A stretch of 64,000 bases of DNA, from contig CT867993.1 of the NCBI GenBank assembly GCA_000165425.1, positions 124,001 through 188,000 on the forward strand, read 5' to 3'. The position numbers and the translations under genes were made by a program. Under the pieces are notes generated by a model. It made no database searches and was not told where the DNA came from. It saw only the letters and a list, made by a program, of their open reading frames with translations. Positions 7,573-20,499 of this stretch are shown piece by piece. The stretch comes from Paramecium tetraurelia. Lineage: Eukaryota. The first letter of the stretch is position 1; each line of letters opens with the position of its first letter.

Positions 7573-9251
7573 ATGATGGAATAAATGCCTAAATTAAGTG
7601 AGATTCACAAAGAATTGTAATACTACACCAGATATTTCTCAGAAAACAAACTCTACTAATCTAGTAAATGGACAGGAGAATTGCTTTTAGGTCTAACCCA
7701 AGAGGAAGACTTATAGTCATCTCAATTCGCCATGTAATTCATTCAAAACAACACAGATTATCAATATTAATTTTTAAGAGAGTTTGTACCTGAAAATAAT
7801 GATATTATTTGTGTGGCAAGGAATTTATTCGATTTAAGAGAGTTCAAAAAATGTGCTTCTTTGCTCTAGGGTTTGATTCACAAAAATGAATCAGCAATGT
7901 TCTTATATTATTATTCATAATACATGTACGGAGAGTTACGCAAAGAAGAAGAAATGTTTGAGAATGAAAATTCAAAGACAGCCACTAATCCAGAATTAAA
8001 GCTATTAGACAGAGAATTATCCAAATTATATGATCAAAAATAATTATCCTAAGTATGTCTATAATATATTTGTTTAGCTAAGCCTATATCTTTATGGCTT
8101 GATTCTCAAGGATACTTTAAGACTTCGTGAAGCCAAAGAGGTTTTTATTTAGGTTTTGAATTAATTGCCTTGCTTTTGGAGTGCCTGGTTAGAATTATGC
8201 AGATTAATGACTGAAGAAGACTCTATCAATGAATTGCCCAATCATTGGATGAAGTTCTTCTGGATTTCCAATTTCAATTTGGAAAAGTTTAAAAACTCTA
8301 ATTGTGTGGAGTCCTTTTAACTATTGCTCTATTATTTCAGAAACTCAAATTTCATCATCAATTAGATAGCAAATGCATACTATAATAATTAAGAATTTGA
8401 ATTGTCGTTAGAATGGTTTGAGAGATTGCTGAGCATAGATCCTTATCGATATGAAAATTTAGACACTTATTCTAATATCTTGTATATTAAGGAAAATTAA
8501 GGAGAACTCGCAAATCTGGCCTTGCAATCCTTTACTAATAATAAGTACGTACCTGAAACTTGTTGTGTAGTAGGAAATTACTATTCTTTAATGAATGAAC
8601 ATGCAAAAGCTATAAATTATTTTCAAAGAGCCTTGAAGTTAGATAAGGATTGTCTTGCTGCATGGACTCTTATGGGTCATGAATACTTAGAAATGAAGAA
8701 TGTAGCTTCCGCCATACAATCTTATAGAAATGCTGTCGAAATTGATCCAAAGGACTTCAGAGCCTGGTATGGATTGGGCCAGACTTATGCCTTATAAGGA
8801 ATGAATTAATATGCACTCTATTATTTTAGTAGAGCTGTGATCAGTAGGCCAAAGGATGCTAGAATGTGGAATGCTATGGCAGAATGTTATGACAAAATGG
8901 ATAAAAAGAATGAGGCTATGAAATGTTATGAAAGAGCTAATTCATGTAAAGATAAAGAAGGAATTGCTATACATTAATTGGCTAAATTATATGATGCAGT
9001 CGTAAGATAAATATATCAAATTTTAGGGCAAGGAAGATAAAGCATAATAAGCATTTGAAGAGAGTTTGAAACGAAAAGATGAAGAATAGACAGTTGACAA
9101 AGAAGTCTCAGAGGCTCTGTTGTATTTGGCTAGGGTTTTCTTGAAGAAAGGTGATAAGGAGAGGGCGATGCAGATGGCAAAAAGACTCTATGATTTTAAT
9201 GGACCTGAAAGGGATGAAGCTAATTAAATTATGAGTTAATTGAATAAATGA
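7573..9251 (+). CDS. CDC23: Anaphase-promoting complex subunit 8 (TPR repeats, ~542 aa)
   Basis: Motifs FDLREFKKC, FWSAWLEL, DPYRYENLDTYSNILY, ETCCVVGNYYSL, AWTLMGHEYLEMKN, DFRAWYGLGQTY. Introns 8053-8077 and 9002-9026 give 543 codons. Confidence 0.95.
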
Positions 9252-10420: not shown

Positions 10421-10612
10421 CTAATATCAGATATAAATTATAATTTTTATTTTACAAATTTTGTACATCATAACTTATTAAGTAGTGTTATTTCGATCTA
10501 ATTTGAGCAATAATTTTAATAAGATTAAATAATTCTGATAAAAAAGAAGAATTTTAGAATCTCTTGATTGCTTATTTTAAATGACTATGTAATTTTTATT
10601 TAATTAATTTTT

Positions 10613-11779
10613 ATGTATAATAATTCAAGAGATCCTCCTAATAAAATTCTTCTTCTTATTCTAAATTCATTGCCTTCTTCTTTTACATTGAACAATTAAT
10701 TCATACACCAAAAATTCAATTAGTTTGGAGATATCAATAAGATTCTCATTTTTGAAAAAGGAAAAACCACCAAAGCCTTTGTTGAATTTCATGAGTTGAA
10801 TAGTGCAATTTAAGCTAAAAAGTAATTGAATGGTTGCAATATTTAAGGAGGAAAGTAATGTCTCTTTTGTTATAGTTTTAGAATGAATATTCATTTTTCT
10901 CGACTTAAAAATCTTAATCTCGAAATAGTGGATAATTCAAGAGGAACAGATTATACATAGGCGAGTAGCAATAGTTAGAATTCTGATTCTATGCTTAACT
11001 CAAGAACAGAGGAGAATATTTAGTTTGATTTAACCAATCATATTAGTTCAACTTAGTCACCCAGAGCAAATTCCAGCCCAATCAGAAACGAACAAATCAA
11101 TCGTCTATTAGAATCATCGGATGGTGAAGATGATCTGAAAATCTGGAAATAAACTATGCCTTTGGACATCGAAGAATTTCATCCAGAGATATAAAAATTA
11201 CTTCAACAGAGATAGTCAAGATTACTCAAAATATTAAATTTTGATTCAAAAATCACCGCCAAGATGATTTACAATGTCTTTTCTAAGTTTGGAAATTTAG
11301 AAGAAATCTTATATGAAAAATCATCTTCCAGAGCCTACATTAAATATTAATCAGTAAATTAGGCAATAATAGCCAAGGAATATCTCAATAATATTTAATT
11401 TTTCGACTCCTAAGTAAGTTTAAATATTTCATAAATTAGATAAGAATATATTTTGAACCTCTCTAATCCCTATAACCCACTACTTTTTAGGATGAGTATA
11501 TGATCTATTATCCTGAAAGTCAACCATACAATAATACCCCACTCTCTCCAAATCTCCTCATCACAGATGTATAAGATCCCTCTGAAATCTCTGACCAAAT
11601 CTAAATGTTTGTCAAAGCCAAAGGTATTATCATCTCTATATAATTTAATAGAAATCAAATATGGAGTAAATAGTATTCATTTGACTTTATTTTCTAATGC
11701 AGATGCACTCAAAATTATTGCTGTGTTTTCAGATTATGAATTCTAAAATTAAAAAATGAATATCATTCTCAAACAATGA
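10613..11779 (+). CDS. PTB/hnRNP-L-like RRM RNA-binding protein
   Basis: RRM1 reads NKILLLIL...FGDINKILIFEK...KAFVEF...LNG...MNIHFSRLKNLN. RRM2 reads MIYNVFSKFGNLEEI...AYIKY...YLNNIQFF. A degenerate third RRM follows. Tiny introns near 10856 and 11414. Confidence 0.85.
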
Positions 11780-13249: not shown

Positions 13250-14002
13250 TCAATTAAATATAAACTTTTAGACTTCCTGGATATTGCAATCTTTAACACT
13301 TTACTCTACTATTTTGATGGATGAGTACTCATTGATGTCAAATTGGTTTTCTTAAAACTAAAATAATATTTGATTTATGTATTACTCTTATTCTATCATT
13401 TGTATTCTCTCTTCACTCTTATACTGCCTTTCTTGATCTCTTTATCCTCTCTCTAATTAAATAGGCTCATCATTTACATTTCTCTAGACAAAAACATCTC
13501 GAAATCAGGAGCCTCATATGCTTTCTCTTTATCCTACTTATTCAACACTATTAAAATTGGGATTTTTGATTTCTAAAATGGAATAGAAACCAAAACCTCA
13601 TATAAGATCGCTGCAGTGGCTCCTATTTAAGATGTCTCAGATGAATCTGTAACTAATATTATTTTCTTGGCTTCTTGTATTTTATTTAAAAACTATTCCT
13701 TTTAATAATTATTTCCTGGCACATCTACGACAATCACACTCTAATTATTTGGCTTAGCTAATTCTGTCTAGTTTGGCTCAATTGAATTAGTTGTTTATAT
13801 TGATGAATTTTAGTTTGAAAGCTATTCTTTCATATATAATTAGTACGCAATACAACAAGGAAGTTTTTCCTGCGTTTTTATCTCCAACTATAAATATTAC
13901 CGAATTATTAGCATTAGCTGTTTAAACTCCACTCTTCCTTTTTGATGTAATATAAAATGCAACGACTAAAACTAGTACAAGTATGGCAATTATAATATAC
14001 AT
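13250..14002 (-). CDS. SRPRB: Signal recognition particle receptor beta subunit (Arf-like GTPase with N-terminal TM anchor)
   Basis: N-terminal hydrophobic helix MYIIIAILVLVLVVAFYI, P-loop IVGDKNAGKTSLL, VVDVPG, LVTDS, ATAAILYEVL, ILIVLNKQD, then LSREM. Confidence 0.9.
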
Positions 14003-14399
14003 TAAATAATTAATAGACACGTTTAATTAAGTTTTTATAATCTTAATGAAAAAATTAACAATAAGTATTAATTTATTTTTCTAATTCAATTAATTGCAGG
14101 CAAGAATTGAACTAAATAGCCTAGTATAATCTATGAAAATGATACTCTTTATTTTCAAAATATTGTGATTATTTTATTAGCAATTTCAAGAATTGAAAAT
14201 ATTATCATGTAAAAACATACAATCTTAGAAATATAATTTAATAATGAATTTGAGGTTCTAATATATAATAGGATAATTTTTCATTGAAATTCTCTTTAGA
14301 ATTATAATCGAACAAATATATATCTTATTTGATTTATATTAGAGAGATAGCATCTTCCTAATATTAATATAATAATGATGCATAATTGTTGATTATAAT

Positions 14400-15530
14400 C
14401 CCTGCATTATCCACTAATAATTATAAGCAAATTTAGTCAATATATATAAAGTATTTCATTAAATTGAAATACTCTTATTATTGTTTTTATTGAGATTTCT
14501 AACTAGATCTCAATAAATTGACTAGGGATAGCTTGATGGAACTATCCCCAATCAATTCATAAAGATTAATTATTATTCATTCAAATCATTCAGCTAGAAT
14601 GACTTTAGTCTCAATAAATGGCATTTGAACTCGATCTTTGATCAATTTGAGTTATTTCTTTTTCTTTCCTTTTCCTTTCTGTCTTTTTTATTTTTATTAA
14701 TCCTTCCAAATAATTAGTTCAATTTTGTATTTTACTTTAATTAAGTTATGTAATAAGTACAAATAAATAGAATTTTTTGACAAAAAAAATAGTTACAATA
14801 TTATTAGTCTTATTTGAAGGGAAACTAATCTAATAACTGAACCACTTCTATCGCAGCAGCCAGTTTGATTCGGTTTTTTTTGACACGAAAAATTTGTGTA
14901 ATTTATCTGCCTTTCTATACCAAAATATTTTATGTTATATATATAAATAATAGGATAAACAAATATTAAAATAGATTAATATTGAAGCATAGCAACCTTG
15001 AAGCATTGAGCTTTCTTAACTCTGTGTCTTTATGCTGAAATAAGCATGCAATTTTAGCATAAAATTCAATATTATTTAATATCCTATTTTATATGACCTA
15101 TTAGGCTATTAATTATATATCAATTAAAAAAATAAAAATGCAAGAGTTGAATACTTAACAAGAAAATGAAATAGAGGCTTTTTTAGCTTATATATGAAAA
15201 ATTAGTTTGGAGATGTTTTTAACTTAAATAATTTAAAGAATCAATTAACCATTTATAAATGATTGATTATTAATGAGAATGATGAAAAAGTTGACGACTC
15301 TTTACTTTTAGTTGATTCTACAAATAATGTGTAGATAAAATAGGAATATATGAATTTATTGAATTCATTTGAGGTTTTTATGGACTGTGTTTGAATGATT
15401 ATGATGTTTTGGATGGAATTTCATTTATGGTGAAGGCGGCACAAAATAATAAAGGCGGTATTCATTAATGAAAATATTTATATCTGAAGCATAATAGGCC
15501 TTAATATGCCATGCATTGCTTTGTATTTTA
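14400..15530. pseudogene. Probable decayed coding remnants in an unusually long intergenic gap
   Basis: Protein-like fragments broken by TGA or frameshifts occur on the - strand (~14400-15060, e.g. RIKLAAAIEVVQLLDQFPFK) and the + strand (15138-15530, MQELNTQQENEIEAF..., YDVLDGISFMVKAAQNNKGG). Confidence 0.3.
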
Positions 15531-15690
15531 TATTAAATGAATTTTTGTAAAAATGAGAGGGGCTTTCAAAAACTAAGTAGGAGGGCTCAATAATTAAAAT
15601 TATTTCTCTGTTTAATTAATTCAAAACTTTCATTTGATTTTATTAGACAGAAATATATTAAATTATATGAATTAATAGATTGTTAATATA

Positions 15691-16779
15691 ATGGAAGCAA
15701 CTTTATGCTAGATATTAGCTGAGAATTACACTTAGGAAACAAACAAATACTCAACAATTATTGTTTTCTAAAGATATAGTTCTGATAAAAAATGCATGTT
15801 TTTTATTGGTTATGATTCCAATTCATTTATTATTATTTAACAGCAACACTACTAAGTAGATGAGATGGATACAAACTTAGATATATATTTCAAGAGAGTT
15901 TATGACTTCTTATATTTAATCCTTTTTCAAAAGAAGGAAGTGACAATCCACTTCATAAATATTTTAATAATAAAAGATTTCGATCATTTCTATCAATTAT
16001 TTGATCTTGAAGGTCCTTTCCCAAAGAGCAAAATCATAGTTTGGATTGAGCATTAACAACAACTTGACATACGAAAATAATATTTATCAATCTAAATCTC
16101 CTTCAATTATGTATAAATCAAATTTGATTATAGAGTGCACTAATAAAGATTTAATTTAATTTGTTAATAAAAGATTTAGGAGCCTACAAATAGTTCGCAA
16201 TCAAATAAATTAGTCAAATGCAAGAGAGTCACTAACAGTTCCTATAATAATTTGAGAACTGCTTAGAACAAGTTAAGGCCTTTAAGTTTTTGACTTTAAT
16301 TAAAGAAATAACTTTTCTTAAGGAAATACCAGATTAAATAGAGTATTTTGCATAAATATTAATGAATCTACCTCGTTATACAAGTTTAGATGCAGTTGTA
16401 ATAATAGCTAAACTTAAGTTATATAAATAAAAAGCAAATTTTAATAGGACAAATAATTAATAAAAGTTAAAAATTAACGAATACTTGGAAATAACCTAAA
16501 CTGATTTAAGGATATTTAAAGAACTAAAGTATTGTCATTTCCCAAAGAGAGGAGATAATAGTTAAAAGTATTATATTTTTTATATATGATAGGTGTAAAG
16601 TTTGTTAAAAGAATAGCGATAAGGTTAGAAAATCCAGTTTTGTTTGTGAAGCGTGTAAACTTCATTATAAAATAAATGTAACCCTTTGTACAACAAAATG
16701 CTTTAAACTATTTCATTTAAATCCTGAAAAGTATTTACGCAGAAAAAATAGATCAAAAAACACAAAAGTTGAAGAATGA
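15691..16779 (+). CDS. PiggyBac/PiggyMac-related protein: C-terminal HC6H cysteine-rich domain plus a putative degenerate transposase core (~346 aa)
   Basis: The ORF is intact after removing introns 16111-16133 and 16568-16592 (347 codons). The C-terminus is HFPKRGDNSQKCKVCQKNSDKVRKSSFVCEACKLHYKINVTLCTTKCFKLFHLNPEKY, i.e. H-x10-CxxC-x13-CxxC-x10-Cx3C-x4-H. Confidence 0.8.
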
Positions 16780-17063
16780 TAAAATATTCTATATTATATT
16801 ATATATATGATATTTCATATAATCAGGAGATTACATATTTTAGGAAAGTATTTTAGGTTCACCATAATTTTATTAGAGTATCAGTAAGTAAAACATTTAA
16901 AACCAATTATATGTTTATAAATTATTAAGAATAATAAATATTTATAATTATAAAAATTTTATGAAATGAAATCTAAATGAAATCAGAAAATGTCGATTAA
17001 ATTGATACTTAAATATAAGAGATAAGAACTTCAAAATTAAGAGTTAAACAATAATTTGTTAGA

Positions 17064-18317
17064 TCACCATATATAAAACATAAATTTAATAATTATCAAA
17101 ATAAATAGAGAAATTCCCGATTAGATTAAAGCTGATTTAAGGGTTTAAGCTTCTAATAATTTTTAAAAGGATCTTAAGCTATACATCAATAGAAGGCAAT
17201 AACAAACTTTGATTAAAATTTCATAAGCGTACATTCCAATAAGCATAGATATAACAAATAGTATATAGAGTAGCATCAAATAAGTTACCATTGAAGGTTT
17301 AGTGACTTTAATATATGAATAAGATTACTGAATAGCATCCAATCACTAAACAAAATAATTTCTATAAGAGATGATAAAGCTATTATGAGTACTGCAATTA
17401 AAATTCGTTCTTAAACACCAACAAGATACCCAAAACAAGATTTTAGAATTGCAATTTCGCTCAAGACTAGATATATTTTACCACTGATTTGATTATCAAC
17501 TTTATTTTGAGTATTTTGTGTATGCTGTGTAAATGAAAAGTCTTTAAAGGTTTGAGTTCTGGCGGGTTTAAATTAAGCAGAATCATTATTCTAATCAGGA
17601 TCTCCACCTAAATGCCTGGCTCTGGCTAATTATTTGTTGCTATACTCTGACTAAAAAACTTAATGTTATTTACTATCTATAGTCTAAAATAACAGAATGA
17701 ATTACAAATTATAATTTATTAAGCAAATCTGATTAGTTGAGTTTAATATTGCTATTACTATTCTTAACTTCTTCGCTATTTTTAATTTAATCATACTGAT
17801 TTTAGTTTCTATAATAACTTTCAATACGCAAGACCTCCTCACTTTTTTCAGGAACATATTCTGAGATGACTTTAGGTTGTAAAATTGGAGGAGGAGGAAC
17901 ATTATTACTTGTAGCAAGTTAGGTTTTTTATGTGTCATCAAATTCTTTATCGTATATTTCTTAGAATTCTTTGATAATGAATAGTAATGGAATCAAAAAC
18001 AAAATTTTATATTGGATTGAGAATTCATTGTTAAGATATGCAGTTATGGATTCTCTTTATTCATTAGGTAATTGATCAATTTGTCTAATAATTTTGGAGT
18101 AATTATGATCTTTTAAGTATTTATGATGTTGCAATTCGACTGCATTAATGAAAAGCAAGGGAATAACAAGTACAAAAGCTGAATGAAATAGGAATCTTCT
18201 AATAAAGTTAACAAAGGATTCTGCAAATCTTTCATATTTCATGATCCTAGCATTATATACAAAATAGGTAATCCAAGTAAATGCCAAACTTACAATTATG
18301 TTTATAATATATATCAT
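17064..18317 (-). CDS. Hypothetical multi-pass membrane protein (~402 aa)
   Basis: N-terminal hydrophobic helices (MIYIINIIVSLAFTWITYFVY, FLFHSAFVLVIPLLFI), a hydrophilic middle and several C-terminal hydrophobic helices. Introns of 22 and 23 nt give 403 codons. Confidence 0.75.
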
Positions 18318-18325
18318 TTTATATA

Positions 18326-20499
18326 ATGAATATTCAAAATTACTCAAGCAAAGACGACAAAAAGAAAACATTATTGAAACCAAGAATACGATCCTCAAGC
18401 AAAGAAGCTACTTAGCAACTCACTCAACCAAGAATTGCAATTTAAAATCCTCCTGTGTATAGAAACACAACAGCTGATAAACATAGAAAACACTCAGTAG
18501 ATAATAAAAAACAAGTAAAGCAAAAAAAGAAGAAAAAGACTCAAAAGAACTTGTAACGTAAAGATTTATCCCTATATATTAAGAATTGGATAATTAGGAG
18601 GAGTAAAGATTATTAGAGGAAGAATAGAAGAGAATTAGAGATCTAGAAGAATTTTAAAGATAATAATGGGAGAAAATGAGTTAGGAAGAACGAGATAGAT
18701 TAAAAAATGAGGAAAACGATAGAGTTTAAATAGAAATGAATTGGGATAAGGAAATTCATGAATACAAAAAGAAATGTTTAGAAATCGAGGAATGGAATAA
18801 CTATATATCCTGTAATACTCAAATAGATGCCAGATCTGAAAAAGATTTAAACACAGTAATTTATCAACTAAGTACGAGTAATGATGATATTTCATTGAAT
18901 TACAAATAGATTGAATATATTTCAACAATAATTTTCCTGATCCAAGTAGCTCATTAATAAGACTTAAGTCAATCAATATTAAATAAGCAGGACCATTATT
19001 TTAGATATATTGAAAAACTAAAATCAATTTAGAGTAGTAAAATATATGAAATAATAAAACACTTTTATATTCATTACGAGAATTACTTGGATGAATTGAA
19101 TCACATCTGTATTAATATATCCTCTATATATAAGTGAAACATTAATACTTTTTGTTGGAATTTAATCAAGAAACCCAATAAAGGATTTTATAAAAAATCG
19201 CATAAAAGCCTGAGGATAGAGTCAAATATGAAATCTTAAAATATACAGAATTCAGTAACTCATTTAAAGCAGCATTTTGGTATTGTCCCTTATCTAAGAT
19301 CGGATATAGAATAAAGCCCATTGACTTCTCTCAAATATCCAATCTTTAAATTGAAATTCCAAGATAATTGGCTGGACAAAGCTTAATTTATTATGTAACA
19401 TGGACAAATCATGATCCGTATGTACAATATAAATAATACACATAATATTTACCAATAGGTGGAATATTTTAAAATTGTTGTGTTAACTTACCTAAATTAT
19501 CAAAGAAAACTAATGGCTGGACACTCAAGCCTACATTTACAGATTCTTAATTATAGCCTTTAAAATTGGCTTAAGGATTCTAGTCTTATAGTTGTTTCTT
19601 TTAAATAACCAATTCGTACTATTTATAAGATGCAAGCAAATTATTTGTGGTAACATTTTAAAATGGTAATTGGACTCAAGAAGGAATAGAAGATTTGAAA
19701 GTGAATCTAGACACTCGATCTGTTTCATTTTCGTTGAAGAATCAATCTCCATTTATGTTAGCCACATTAAAATTTGCTGATTTTCCATTTAAAACCTGGA
19801 AAGTCAGTTCTCTATCTCCTGATAAAGTATATGTAAATATCATAAGTAAAAATTCTAATTGATATTTTATAGCCTAAAGAGATATTAATATTGGAATATA
19901 ATTAGACAGCAAACTATCAAAATTAGTAAAACCTACTAGTCTTGCCTAATAATATTTTTAAGAACCTATGCCGATCATAGAATTATTATTAAAATTAAGA
20001 AATGTTGGAATCAATTTGATAGCCCAAGAGGAAGATGCAATCTGTTTGTAAACTGTGTTTAAAAGATCTGAAGTTGAAAATCAAGTATTATTAAATTTAA
20101 TGTAAACACTAAGAGGTATATCTATTTATAGAAATTGTAGTTTATTCCTTCAAATAATCAAAATGGAATTAAAAATGTGGTTCAGATTAAATTATTATTC
20201 AGTTTATTGAGAATCCTAATTTTAATTAAGATTTTGAAGGAGATGATGAATTTAAATGGAGAAATTTAGAATTCCAATTGAATAAAGTATCCCTTCTGGA
20301 GGGTAATGATAATAGTGATAAGTTTTCATCAAAATGGTTTAAAAATACTGTTAGTCATGCTAATTTATTAATTTTAATTCAACAGCATTAAATCACTCCA
20401 CCAGAATTATAATTTTATATGGAAGAAATTCAGAATGTTGAATTAAGATCAAACCTTAGAACAATGCTGAAAGTAATGAGACTTTTATCAATTAATTGA
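18326..20499 (+). CDS. DNAI7: Dynein axonemal intermediate chain 7 / CASC1 (IC97/Las1)-like
   Basis: K-rich N-terminus, E/Q coiled coil, then EEWNNYISCNTQIDARSEKDLNT resembling the CASC1 N-terminal motif. Downstream are FGIVP, FPFKTWK and a C-terminal ...RTMLKVMRLLSIN*. Confidence 0.75.

Follow-up and report, generated by a model that had tools for sequence, protein, structure and literature searches.

A short, putatively domesticated PiggyBac-like protein family in Paramecium with a conserved cysteine-rich domain

The gene GSPATT00028716001 of Paramecium tetraurelia may encode a domesticated, catalytically inert "mini-PiggyBac", equivalent to about the last two thirds of a PiggyBac transposase. 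It lies at 15691-16779 on the plus strand of the stretch of DNA analysed here (the window), 64,000 nucleotides of macronuclear sequence from contig CT867993.1 (assembly GCA_000165425.1, positions 124,001 to 188,000); all coordinates below are those of the window. The gene had been picked out from the DNA letters alone as a candidate additional domesticated PiggyBac gene, short and probably catalytically dead (the original prediction). As we read it, the protein would consist of an RNase H-like core without the catalytic aspartate triad (DDD), a much reduced insertion domain, a helical region, a basic, zinc-binding cysteine-rich domain (CRD) and a basic tail, with the N-terminal domain and the first half of the dimerisation/DNA-binding domain missing. 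Such a protein would most likely serve as a nuclear, non-enzymatic subunit that binds DNA or chromatin through its CRD and its remnant core and helices. The basic zinc finger and tail would support nuclear import and contact with nucleic acid or histone tails, and the core and helical remnant would contribute what the corresponding part mediates in transposases, namely DNA contacts and oligomerisation. The setting we prefer is the developing new macronucleus, where it would assist or modulate excision by the Pgm/PgmL machinery. This explanation as a whole, an inert domesticated mini-PiggyBac acting as a binding subunit, perhaps with the Pgm/PgmL machinery, is put forward tentatively. Derivation of the whole protein from PiggyBac, and not just of its CRD, is probable; an action in DNA elimination is possible; nuclear location, binding activity and the link to DNA elimination are properties that we infer. 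What is new is a conserved three-paralog family of unusually short architecture outside the described Pgm/PgmL set; an automatic PiggyBac name for the protein was known already. The parts of the protein on which the argument turns are as follows.

15748..16148, plus strand: predicted RNase H-like core, residues 20-145, spanning intron 1 (AlphaFold model and fold matches)
16176..16505, plus strand: modelled all-helical region, residues 155-264, of which the first part (to about residue 247) aligns with piggyBac up to 519; model confidence (pLDDT) drops under 50 beyond residue 217
16536..16716, plus strand: PiggyBac-type CRD, residues 275-326, spanning intron 2 (Pfam, hhalign and motif)
16717..16776, plus strand: conserved basic tail LNPEKYLRRKNRSKNTKVEE, residues 327-346, isoelectric point (pI) 10.2 (alignment)

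The C-terminus carries the motif H-x10-CxxC-x13-CxxC-x10-Cx3C-x4-H at residues 275-326, an HC6H pattern spaced exactly as the original prediction had given it and followed by the basic tail, which may act as a nuclear localisation signal. The eight candidate zinc ligands (H275, C286, C289, C303, C306, C317, C321 and H326) are the same in all 13 family sequences aligned, and the pI is 9.6 for the CRD and 9.8 for CRD plus tail. Pfam model PF13842 (zf-Tnp_2) matches all 11 family members, with a best E value of 4e-5, and is the sole Pfam match in each of the four full-length proteins scanned (E 8.5e-5 to 5.1e-4). When a 13-sequence family profile was compared by hhalign with seven PF13843-bearing proteins of 460-505 residues, the result was 99.2%, E 1.7e-19 and 39% identity over 71 columns; comparison with three transposases that have an invariant DDD gave 98.3% and E 1.5e-14, also over 71 columns. 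Both alignments take in the CRD and the basic tail. These comparisons identify the C-terminus as a genuine PiggyBac-type CRD, the class to which the motif had been assigned, rather than a chance pattern.

A family-profile search of 1.84 billion representatives returned 46 matches at E <= 1e-3, four of them members of the family; the other 42 align only to the C-terminal part of the profile. Pfam models were scanned against 18 of the 46, and PF13843 (DDE_Tnp_1_7) was found in nine, PF13842 in 11 and nothing in three. Since PF13843 lies upstream of the CRD match in nine of the 18, a transposase core is the usual context for this type of CRD. The variant with an upstream histidine is the type that PMC8086355 describes for Pgm and the PgmLs, whereas the CRD of Trichoplusia ni (T. 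ni) piggyBac is given there as CxxC-CxxC-CxxH-CxxC. In the account of the same source, the basic piggyBac CRD binds DNA. The CRD of Pgm, by contrast, carries an overall negative charge; in vitro, DNA binding is seen with none of the Pgm and PgmL CRDs, whose ligand is instead the histone H3 tail (PMC8086355).

Outside Paramecium, the closest CRD and tail belong to the seven PF13843-bearing proteins of the hhalign comparison, P0025, P0026, P0040, P0046, P0056, P0061 and P0062, from metagenome or run assemblies, whose catalytic aspartates, by alignment with intact transposases, have likewise been lost. They differ from the GSPATT00028716001 family in that they keep an N-terminal part that Pfam recognises and align over their full length to intact PiggyBac transposases (hhalign 99.9%), and their N-terminal parts have no detectable similarity to those of the family. 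A HMMER alignment to P0026 (profile positions 196-362) that reached upstream of the CRD was not confirmed after the CRD had been removed.

Upstream of the CRD, an RNase H-like fold is predicted. In an AlphaFold2 model built on 11 sequences, strands at residues 21-30, 35-42 and 48-55 are followed by a helix at 63-80, a strand at 84-90, a helix at 98-107 and a strand at 114-120; this strand-strand-strand-helix-strand-helix-strand topology is the order of the RNase H-like fold. After the core strands the model has two short strands (131-135 and 140-145), then a long helix (155-189) and additional helices. Block means of the predicted local distance difference test (pLDDT) lie between 55 and 85 over residues 21-210 and drop below 50 from residue 211, the CRD included. 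Four segments had been matched to PiggyBac core motifs in the original prediction, and all four fall on the expected modelled elements: STIIVF falls within strand 1, the hairpin of strands 2 and 3 is made by KCMFFIGYDSNSFIIIQQQHY, helix 1 together with strand 4 is covered by VYDFLYLILFQKKEVTIHFIN, and FENCLEQVK is part of the long helix 155-189. The agreement is at the level of the fold only; the residue equivalences that had been proposed are supported by no sequence method.

Structure searches returned RNase H-like proteins of many kinds. With Foldseek, all 10 matches at E <= 1e-3 were Argonaute/PIWI-type chains, with the HIV integrase core at rank 18 and piggyBat at rank 37. In a VIA-align search of 48,161 chains, for which the tool's typical Z for models without a clear match is 7-8, eight chains had Z >= 8 and 89 had Z >= 5, the top rows being an Argonaute PIWI domain (Z 9.3), Tn5 transposase (Z 9.3 over 202 residues) and MED13 (Z 9.2). 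The piggyBac chain 6x67_C reached Z 8.7 with a root-mean-square deviation of 4.7 over 195 residues, pairing model residues 20-247 with chain residues 262-519, and piggyBat reached Z 7.7 over 196 residues. By title, the 50 VIA-align matches listed are almost all Argonaute/PIWI proteins, retroviral integrase cores, DDE transposases (Tn5, piggyBac, piggyBat, Mu), MED13, UvrC-C, EndoV and NurA; Argonaute/PIWI proteins, integrases, DDE transposases, MED13, UvrC-C, EndoV and NurA share the RNase H-like fold. When Foldseek's top 1000 were aligned, the Tn5 inhibitor 1b7e came first (Z 10.1, 205 residues). Alignments of about 200 residues were obtained only with IS4/PiggyBac-type transposases, those with integrases and PIWI domains covering about 120-157.

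The part of piggyBac covered by its alignment can be placed on the published domain limits. The catalytic domain of piggyBac is described as residues 263-457, with an insertion domain (372-433) after the fifth strand; residues 457-535 form the second half of the helical dimerisation/DNA-binding domain, of which 117-263 is the first half, and the catalytic triad is D268/D346/D447 (PMC7351741). By these limits the model begins at the start of the catalytic domain, runs colinearly into the helical region and then reaches the CRD; an RNase H-like core colinear with piggyBac is thus what the model predicts. From core start to CRD start there are 255 residues here against about 290 in piggyBac, whose CRD we take to start near residue 553. 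To call the core "collapsed", as the original prediction did, is therefore an overstatement, the loss being mainly that of the N-terminal 262 residues. The N-terminal half of the dimerisation/DNA-binding domain (piggyBac 117-263) has no counterpart, since only 19-27 residues precede the first strand and the paralogs add at most about 20.

The catalytic residues of the transposase are not conserved. Within residues 20-145 the 14 family sequences share no column that is acidic throughout, and the 13-sequence alignment has no invariant D or E anywhere in the N-terminal 270 residues. Columns that are acidic in every one of the 14 occur only at 204 and 226, in the helical region; F26 and R28 in strand 1 are invariant, as is N90 at the end of strand 4. 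Lacking a conserved DDD/E triad, the protein is no nuclease of the RNase H-like type. Judged by the alignment, it is catalytically inert, as had been thought probable, and DNA cutting by it is ruled out.

The family comprises 14 proteins of 312-370 residues from six Paramecium species: three each in P. tetraurelia, P. octaurelia, P. pentaurelia and P. sonneborni, and one each in P. primaurelia and P. bursaria. The P. tetraurelia paralogs are GSPATT00026904001 (50% identical) and GSPATT00035863001 (38%). A maximum-likelihood tree resolves three aurelia groups, each containing a tetraurelia-octaurelia pair (support 100/100), and places the P. bursaria homolog on a very long branch. Across the family 35 columns are invariant, all eight zinc ligands among them; the parallel retention of intact copies, together with these 35 columns, argues for function. 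The branch leading to the tetraurelia-octaurelia pair is long in all three groups (0.37-0.42 changes per site, other inner branches being about 0.07-0.09), which suggests that the whole family is evolving faster in that lineage. One further protein, P0017 (103 residues), matches only positions 153-241 of the family profile (E 1.3e-25) and is likely to be an incomplete gene model of a further member.

The gene has three exons and two introns, and its joined exons give 1041 nucleotides, or 346 codons plus a TGA stop in the ciliate code, with 22 in-frame TAA or TAG codons read as Q. Splicing reproduces P0004 letter for letter (CAK57681.1, XP_001425079.1, UniProt A0BGL4), in agreement with the intact 346-residue ciliate-code open reading frame with two introns that had been predicted; the automatic UniRef/UniProt name for A0BGL4 is [quoted passage not shown]. 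The annotated start at 15691 may sit eight codons too far downstream: an in-frame upstream ATG would add MNQQIVNI, which in an alignment with paralogs and orthologs resembles the paralog N-termini MNSSFVNK and MNSIIENQ, so that the true start may lie 24 nucleotides upstream and the protein have 354 residues. The elements of the gene are listed here.

15667..15690, plus strand: possible eight extra N-terminal codons (MNQQIVNI) from the in-frame upstream ATG, outside the annotated model
15691..16110, plus strand: exon 1, residues 1-140 (the spliced product equals P0004)
16111..16133, plus strand: intron 1, 23 nucleotides, GTA...TAG
16134..16567, plus strand: exon 2, residues 141-284 and two bases of codon 285
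16568..16592, plus strand: intron 2, 25 nucleotides, GTA...TAG
16593..16779, plus strand: exon 3, last base of codon 285, residues 286-346 and the TGA stop

Near the N-terminus (15691-15750), an 11-residue segment, LYQILASQSEV (alignment columns 19-29), is absent from the window copy and its P. octaurelia ortholog and present in all other aurelia members.

No transposon ends, that is, TTAA-flanked terminal inverted repeats, were found around the gene in 14000-18500, where the original prediction had also seen no obvious ones. The 72 inverted-repeat pairs in that interval are AT-rich and of low complexity, and the pair that brackets the gene (15662-15692 and 16793-16823) is 77% complementary and overlaps the start codon. 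An autonomous PiggyBac transposon was therefore rejected, there being no TTAA-flanked inverted repeats and the neighbours being host genes. Two such neighbours on the plus strand are ordinary host genes unrelated to transposons: 7877-9058 encodes an APC8/Cdc23-like tetratricopeptide repeat protein, and 10568-11503 a protein with two RNA recognition motifs. That the gene is instead a decaying, functionless relic of a transposase is very improbable. Its shortness, its lost catalytic residues and its very low RNA coverage would suit a relic, but frames are intact in all 14 proteins from six species, three paralog groups and a P. bursaria homolog have been kept, 35 columns are invariant, and the surroundings show ordinary host genes and no transposon ends.

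The PgmLs were discovered, according to PMC6143343, by a HMMER search with PF13843, and all are described there as carrying that domain. PgmL1-PgmL5 resemble the protein studied here in being PiggyBac-derived P. tetraurelia proteins without an intact DDD, with the upstream-histidine variant of the CRD at the C-terminus, and in having been kept as duplicates from whole-genome duplications. They differ in several respects. DDE_Tnp_1_7 is detectable by Pfam in PgmLs and not in the GSPATT00028716001 family; and interaction with Pgm and a requirement for the excision of internal eliminated sequences have been shown for PgmLs, whereas for GSPATT00028716001 they are only proposed. The CRDs of PgmL1 to PgmL5 start at residues 463, 540, 471, 856 and 761 as given in PMC8086355, hence at residue 463 at least, against 275 here. 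The ids 28716001, 26904001 and 35863001 are absent from the ten Pgm/PgmL accessions in Supplementary file 2 of PMC6143343, and the family is thus, as foreseen, not an already described PgmL. Searches of the literature turned up neither the gene, protein or UniProt ids nor "PgmL6/PgmL7", and among literature matching PF13842 and its aliases there was none about this family. According to a 2026 proximity-labelling paper, the machinery still consists of Pgm and PgmL1-5 (PMC13092971).

The longest protein among the 46 family-profile matches has 589 residues, so that Pgm, PgmL2, PgmL4 and PgmL5 are not reached and the family is not a close relative of the PgmLs. These comparisons suggest that it is not a recently truncated PgmL; given a CRD that connects to intact PiggyBac transposases and not to the long PgmLs, it may represent a separate domestication. 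A more specific version, in which the three paralogs are a seventh Paramecium PiggyBac-derived family, possibly separately domesticated, and act as a minimal scaffold that joins or regulates the Pgm complex, for example through a basic CRD that binds DNA, we regard as doubtful.

The nearest functional precedent is Lia5 of Tetrahymena thermophila, which is described in PMC3775806 as having PF13843 and PF13842, lacking the DDD triad, thought to be non-catalytic and essential for DNA elimination. Lia5 is PiggyBac-derived like the protein here, with a PF13842 zinc ribbon and no DDD triad, but it is a glutamine-rich protein of 1048 residues with a recognisable PF13843 region, against 346 residues and no such region. 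T. ni piggyBac (PDB 6X67) has the same order of RNase H-like core (predicted here), helices and CRD. In contrast to it, our protein lacks residues equivalent to 1-262 (the N-terminal domain and the helical domain's first half), has an insertion domain that the model reduces to two short strands, and shows no equivalent of D268/D346/D447; its CRD is of HC6H rather than CxxC-CxxC-CxxH-CxxC type, and the gene has no TTAA-flanked inverted repeats around it.

Several results weigh against the proposal that the whole protein is PiggyBac-derived and takes part in DNA elimination. The best AlphaFold2 model is of moderate confidence only (mean pLDDT 56.5, predicted template modelling score 0.54), the other four average pLDDT 40-49, and the model of the P. 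bursaria homolog, at pLDDT 40.5, was unusable for searching and agrees with the first only in the order of the first strands and helix. The piggyBac Z of 8.7 is tied with those of PIWI domains, integrases and MED13 and stands just above the tool's background of 7-8; with Z so tied, the fold evidence speaks for "RNase H-like" and not specifically for "PiggyBac". PF13843, the model that found the PgmLs, matches none of the 11 family members even at E <= 10, as the original prediction suspected when it allowed that the protein might be too diverged for profile searches; of the two profiles it named for comparison, that of the CRD matched all 11 members and DDE_Tnp_1_7 none. Absence of piggyBac residues 1-262 and of most of the insertion domain would explain this failure: in four of the five divergent proteins of 460-518 residues that were scanned, the PF13843 match covers nothing but N-terminal profile positions, 7-121 of 349 at the most. 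N-terminal pieces alone gave no Pfam match, and with the CRD removed, hhalign of the N-terminal part against two PiggyBac alignments, run locally and globally, gave P 0.59-0.88. A family-profile search of PDB sequences returned only ribosomal uS14 zinc ribbons over the CRD (best E 0.018), and a look-alike search of the ESM Atlas with residues 1-270 gave no usable match. By sequence methods (Pfam, PDB profile search and hhalign), then, no link of the N-terminal 270 residues to PiggyBac was found. For the CRD itself, the full-length PF13842 scores of four members, 21-23.5 bits, fall under the 24-bit gathering cut-off, which isolated C-terminal (exon-3) pieces pass with 24.4 and 27.2 bits.

The missing sequence signal for a PiggyBac core, the moderate or poor confidence of the models and the tie in Z among PIWI domains, integrases, MED13 and transposases would also fit a protein in which only the CRD and tail come from PiggyBac, the N-terminal 270 residues being of another RNase H-like lineage or a mis-modelled new fold. 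We consider such a composite origin unlikely. The order of core, helices and CRD and their spacing (255 against about 290 residues, with the CRD start that we assume for piggyBac) match piggyBac, the longest structural alignments, of 195-205 residues, are those with Tn5, piggyBac and piggyBat, and PF13843 lies upstream of the CRD in half of the profile matches scanned.

RNA reads speak for transcription of the gene. In three poly(A)-selected RNA sequencing runs, 5, 27 and 2 reads fell within 15300-17100; most of them map to the gene itself, and their first mates are chiefly on the minus strand. This pattern fits a weakly expressed plus-strand mRNA, with too few reads for splice joints; this very low coverage, from runs of unknown stage, provides no tie to development. 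In run X21, reads also lie just upstream, at 15300-15543, with a depth of about 0.5-1.9 and the same mate orientation as on the gene; they could come from the 3' end of a transcript lying upstream or from a long 5' leader. The best upstream match to the Co-PGM promoter motif, AAAATCMTTdWAATAWTT (PMC10711438), is at 15589-15606 and has three mismatches. Because the window contains 57 such three-mismatch matches where 39 are expected by chance, this one is not counted as evidence. The three gene ids have no row in the text-searchable supplements of PMC3091696 and PMC5485702, two picture-only PDFs of PMC3091696 lying outside that search.

A protein derived as a whole from PiggyBac, and inactive, might instead work outside DNA elimination, as a nuclear DNA- or chromatin-binding regulator (a transcription factor, for example) in vegetative or other stages. 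Roles of this kind outside DNA elimination are also assumed for several vertebrate PGBD genes. The structural and CRD evidence for this alternative is identical to that for the accessory role we prefer, and it draws further support from the absence of a convincing Co-PGM motif, from the CRD, whose basic character (pI 9.6) recalls the DNA-binding CRD of piggyBac and contrasts with the acidic one of Pgm (PMC8086355), and from the text of PMC13092971, in which, its full protein list aside, the family is not reported among the partners of Pgm. Nothing positive speaks for a vegetative role, however, the RNA runs being of unknown stage, and the PiggyBac-derived ciliate proteins studied so far, Paramecium Pgm and PgmL1-5 and Tetrahymena Lia5, are all described as acting in DNA elimination (PMC6143343, PMC8086355, PMC3775806). 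This precedent favours an accessory role with Pgm and the PgmLs, and we hold a function outside elimination to be rather unlikely.

The excision machinery of Paramecium has to find roughly 45,000 cleavage sites. A conserved, probably PiggyBac-derived protein with a basic and possibly DNA-binding CRD, invisible to the profile by which the PgmLs were found, is a specific candidate for a part of that machinery. Should it play no part in elimination, it would provide the first known case of a PiggyBac-derived ciliate gene co-opted for something else. As read here, the family would also show how far the core of a transposase can drift while its zinc finger stays recognisable.

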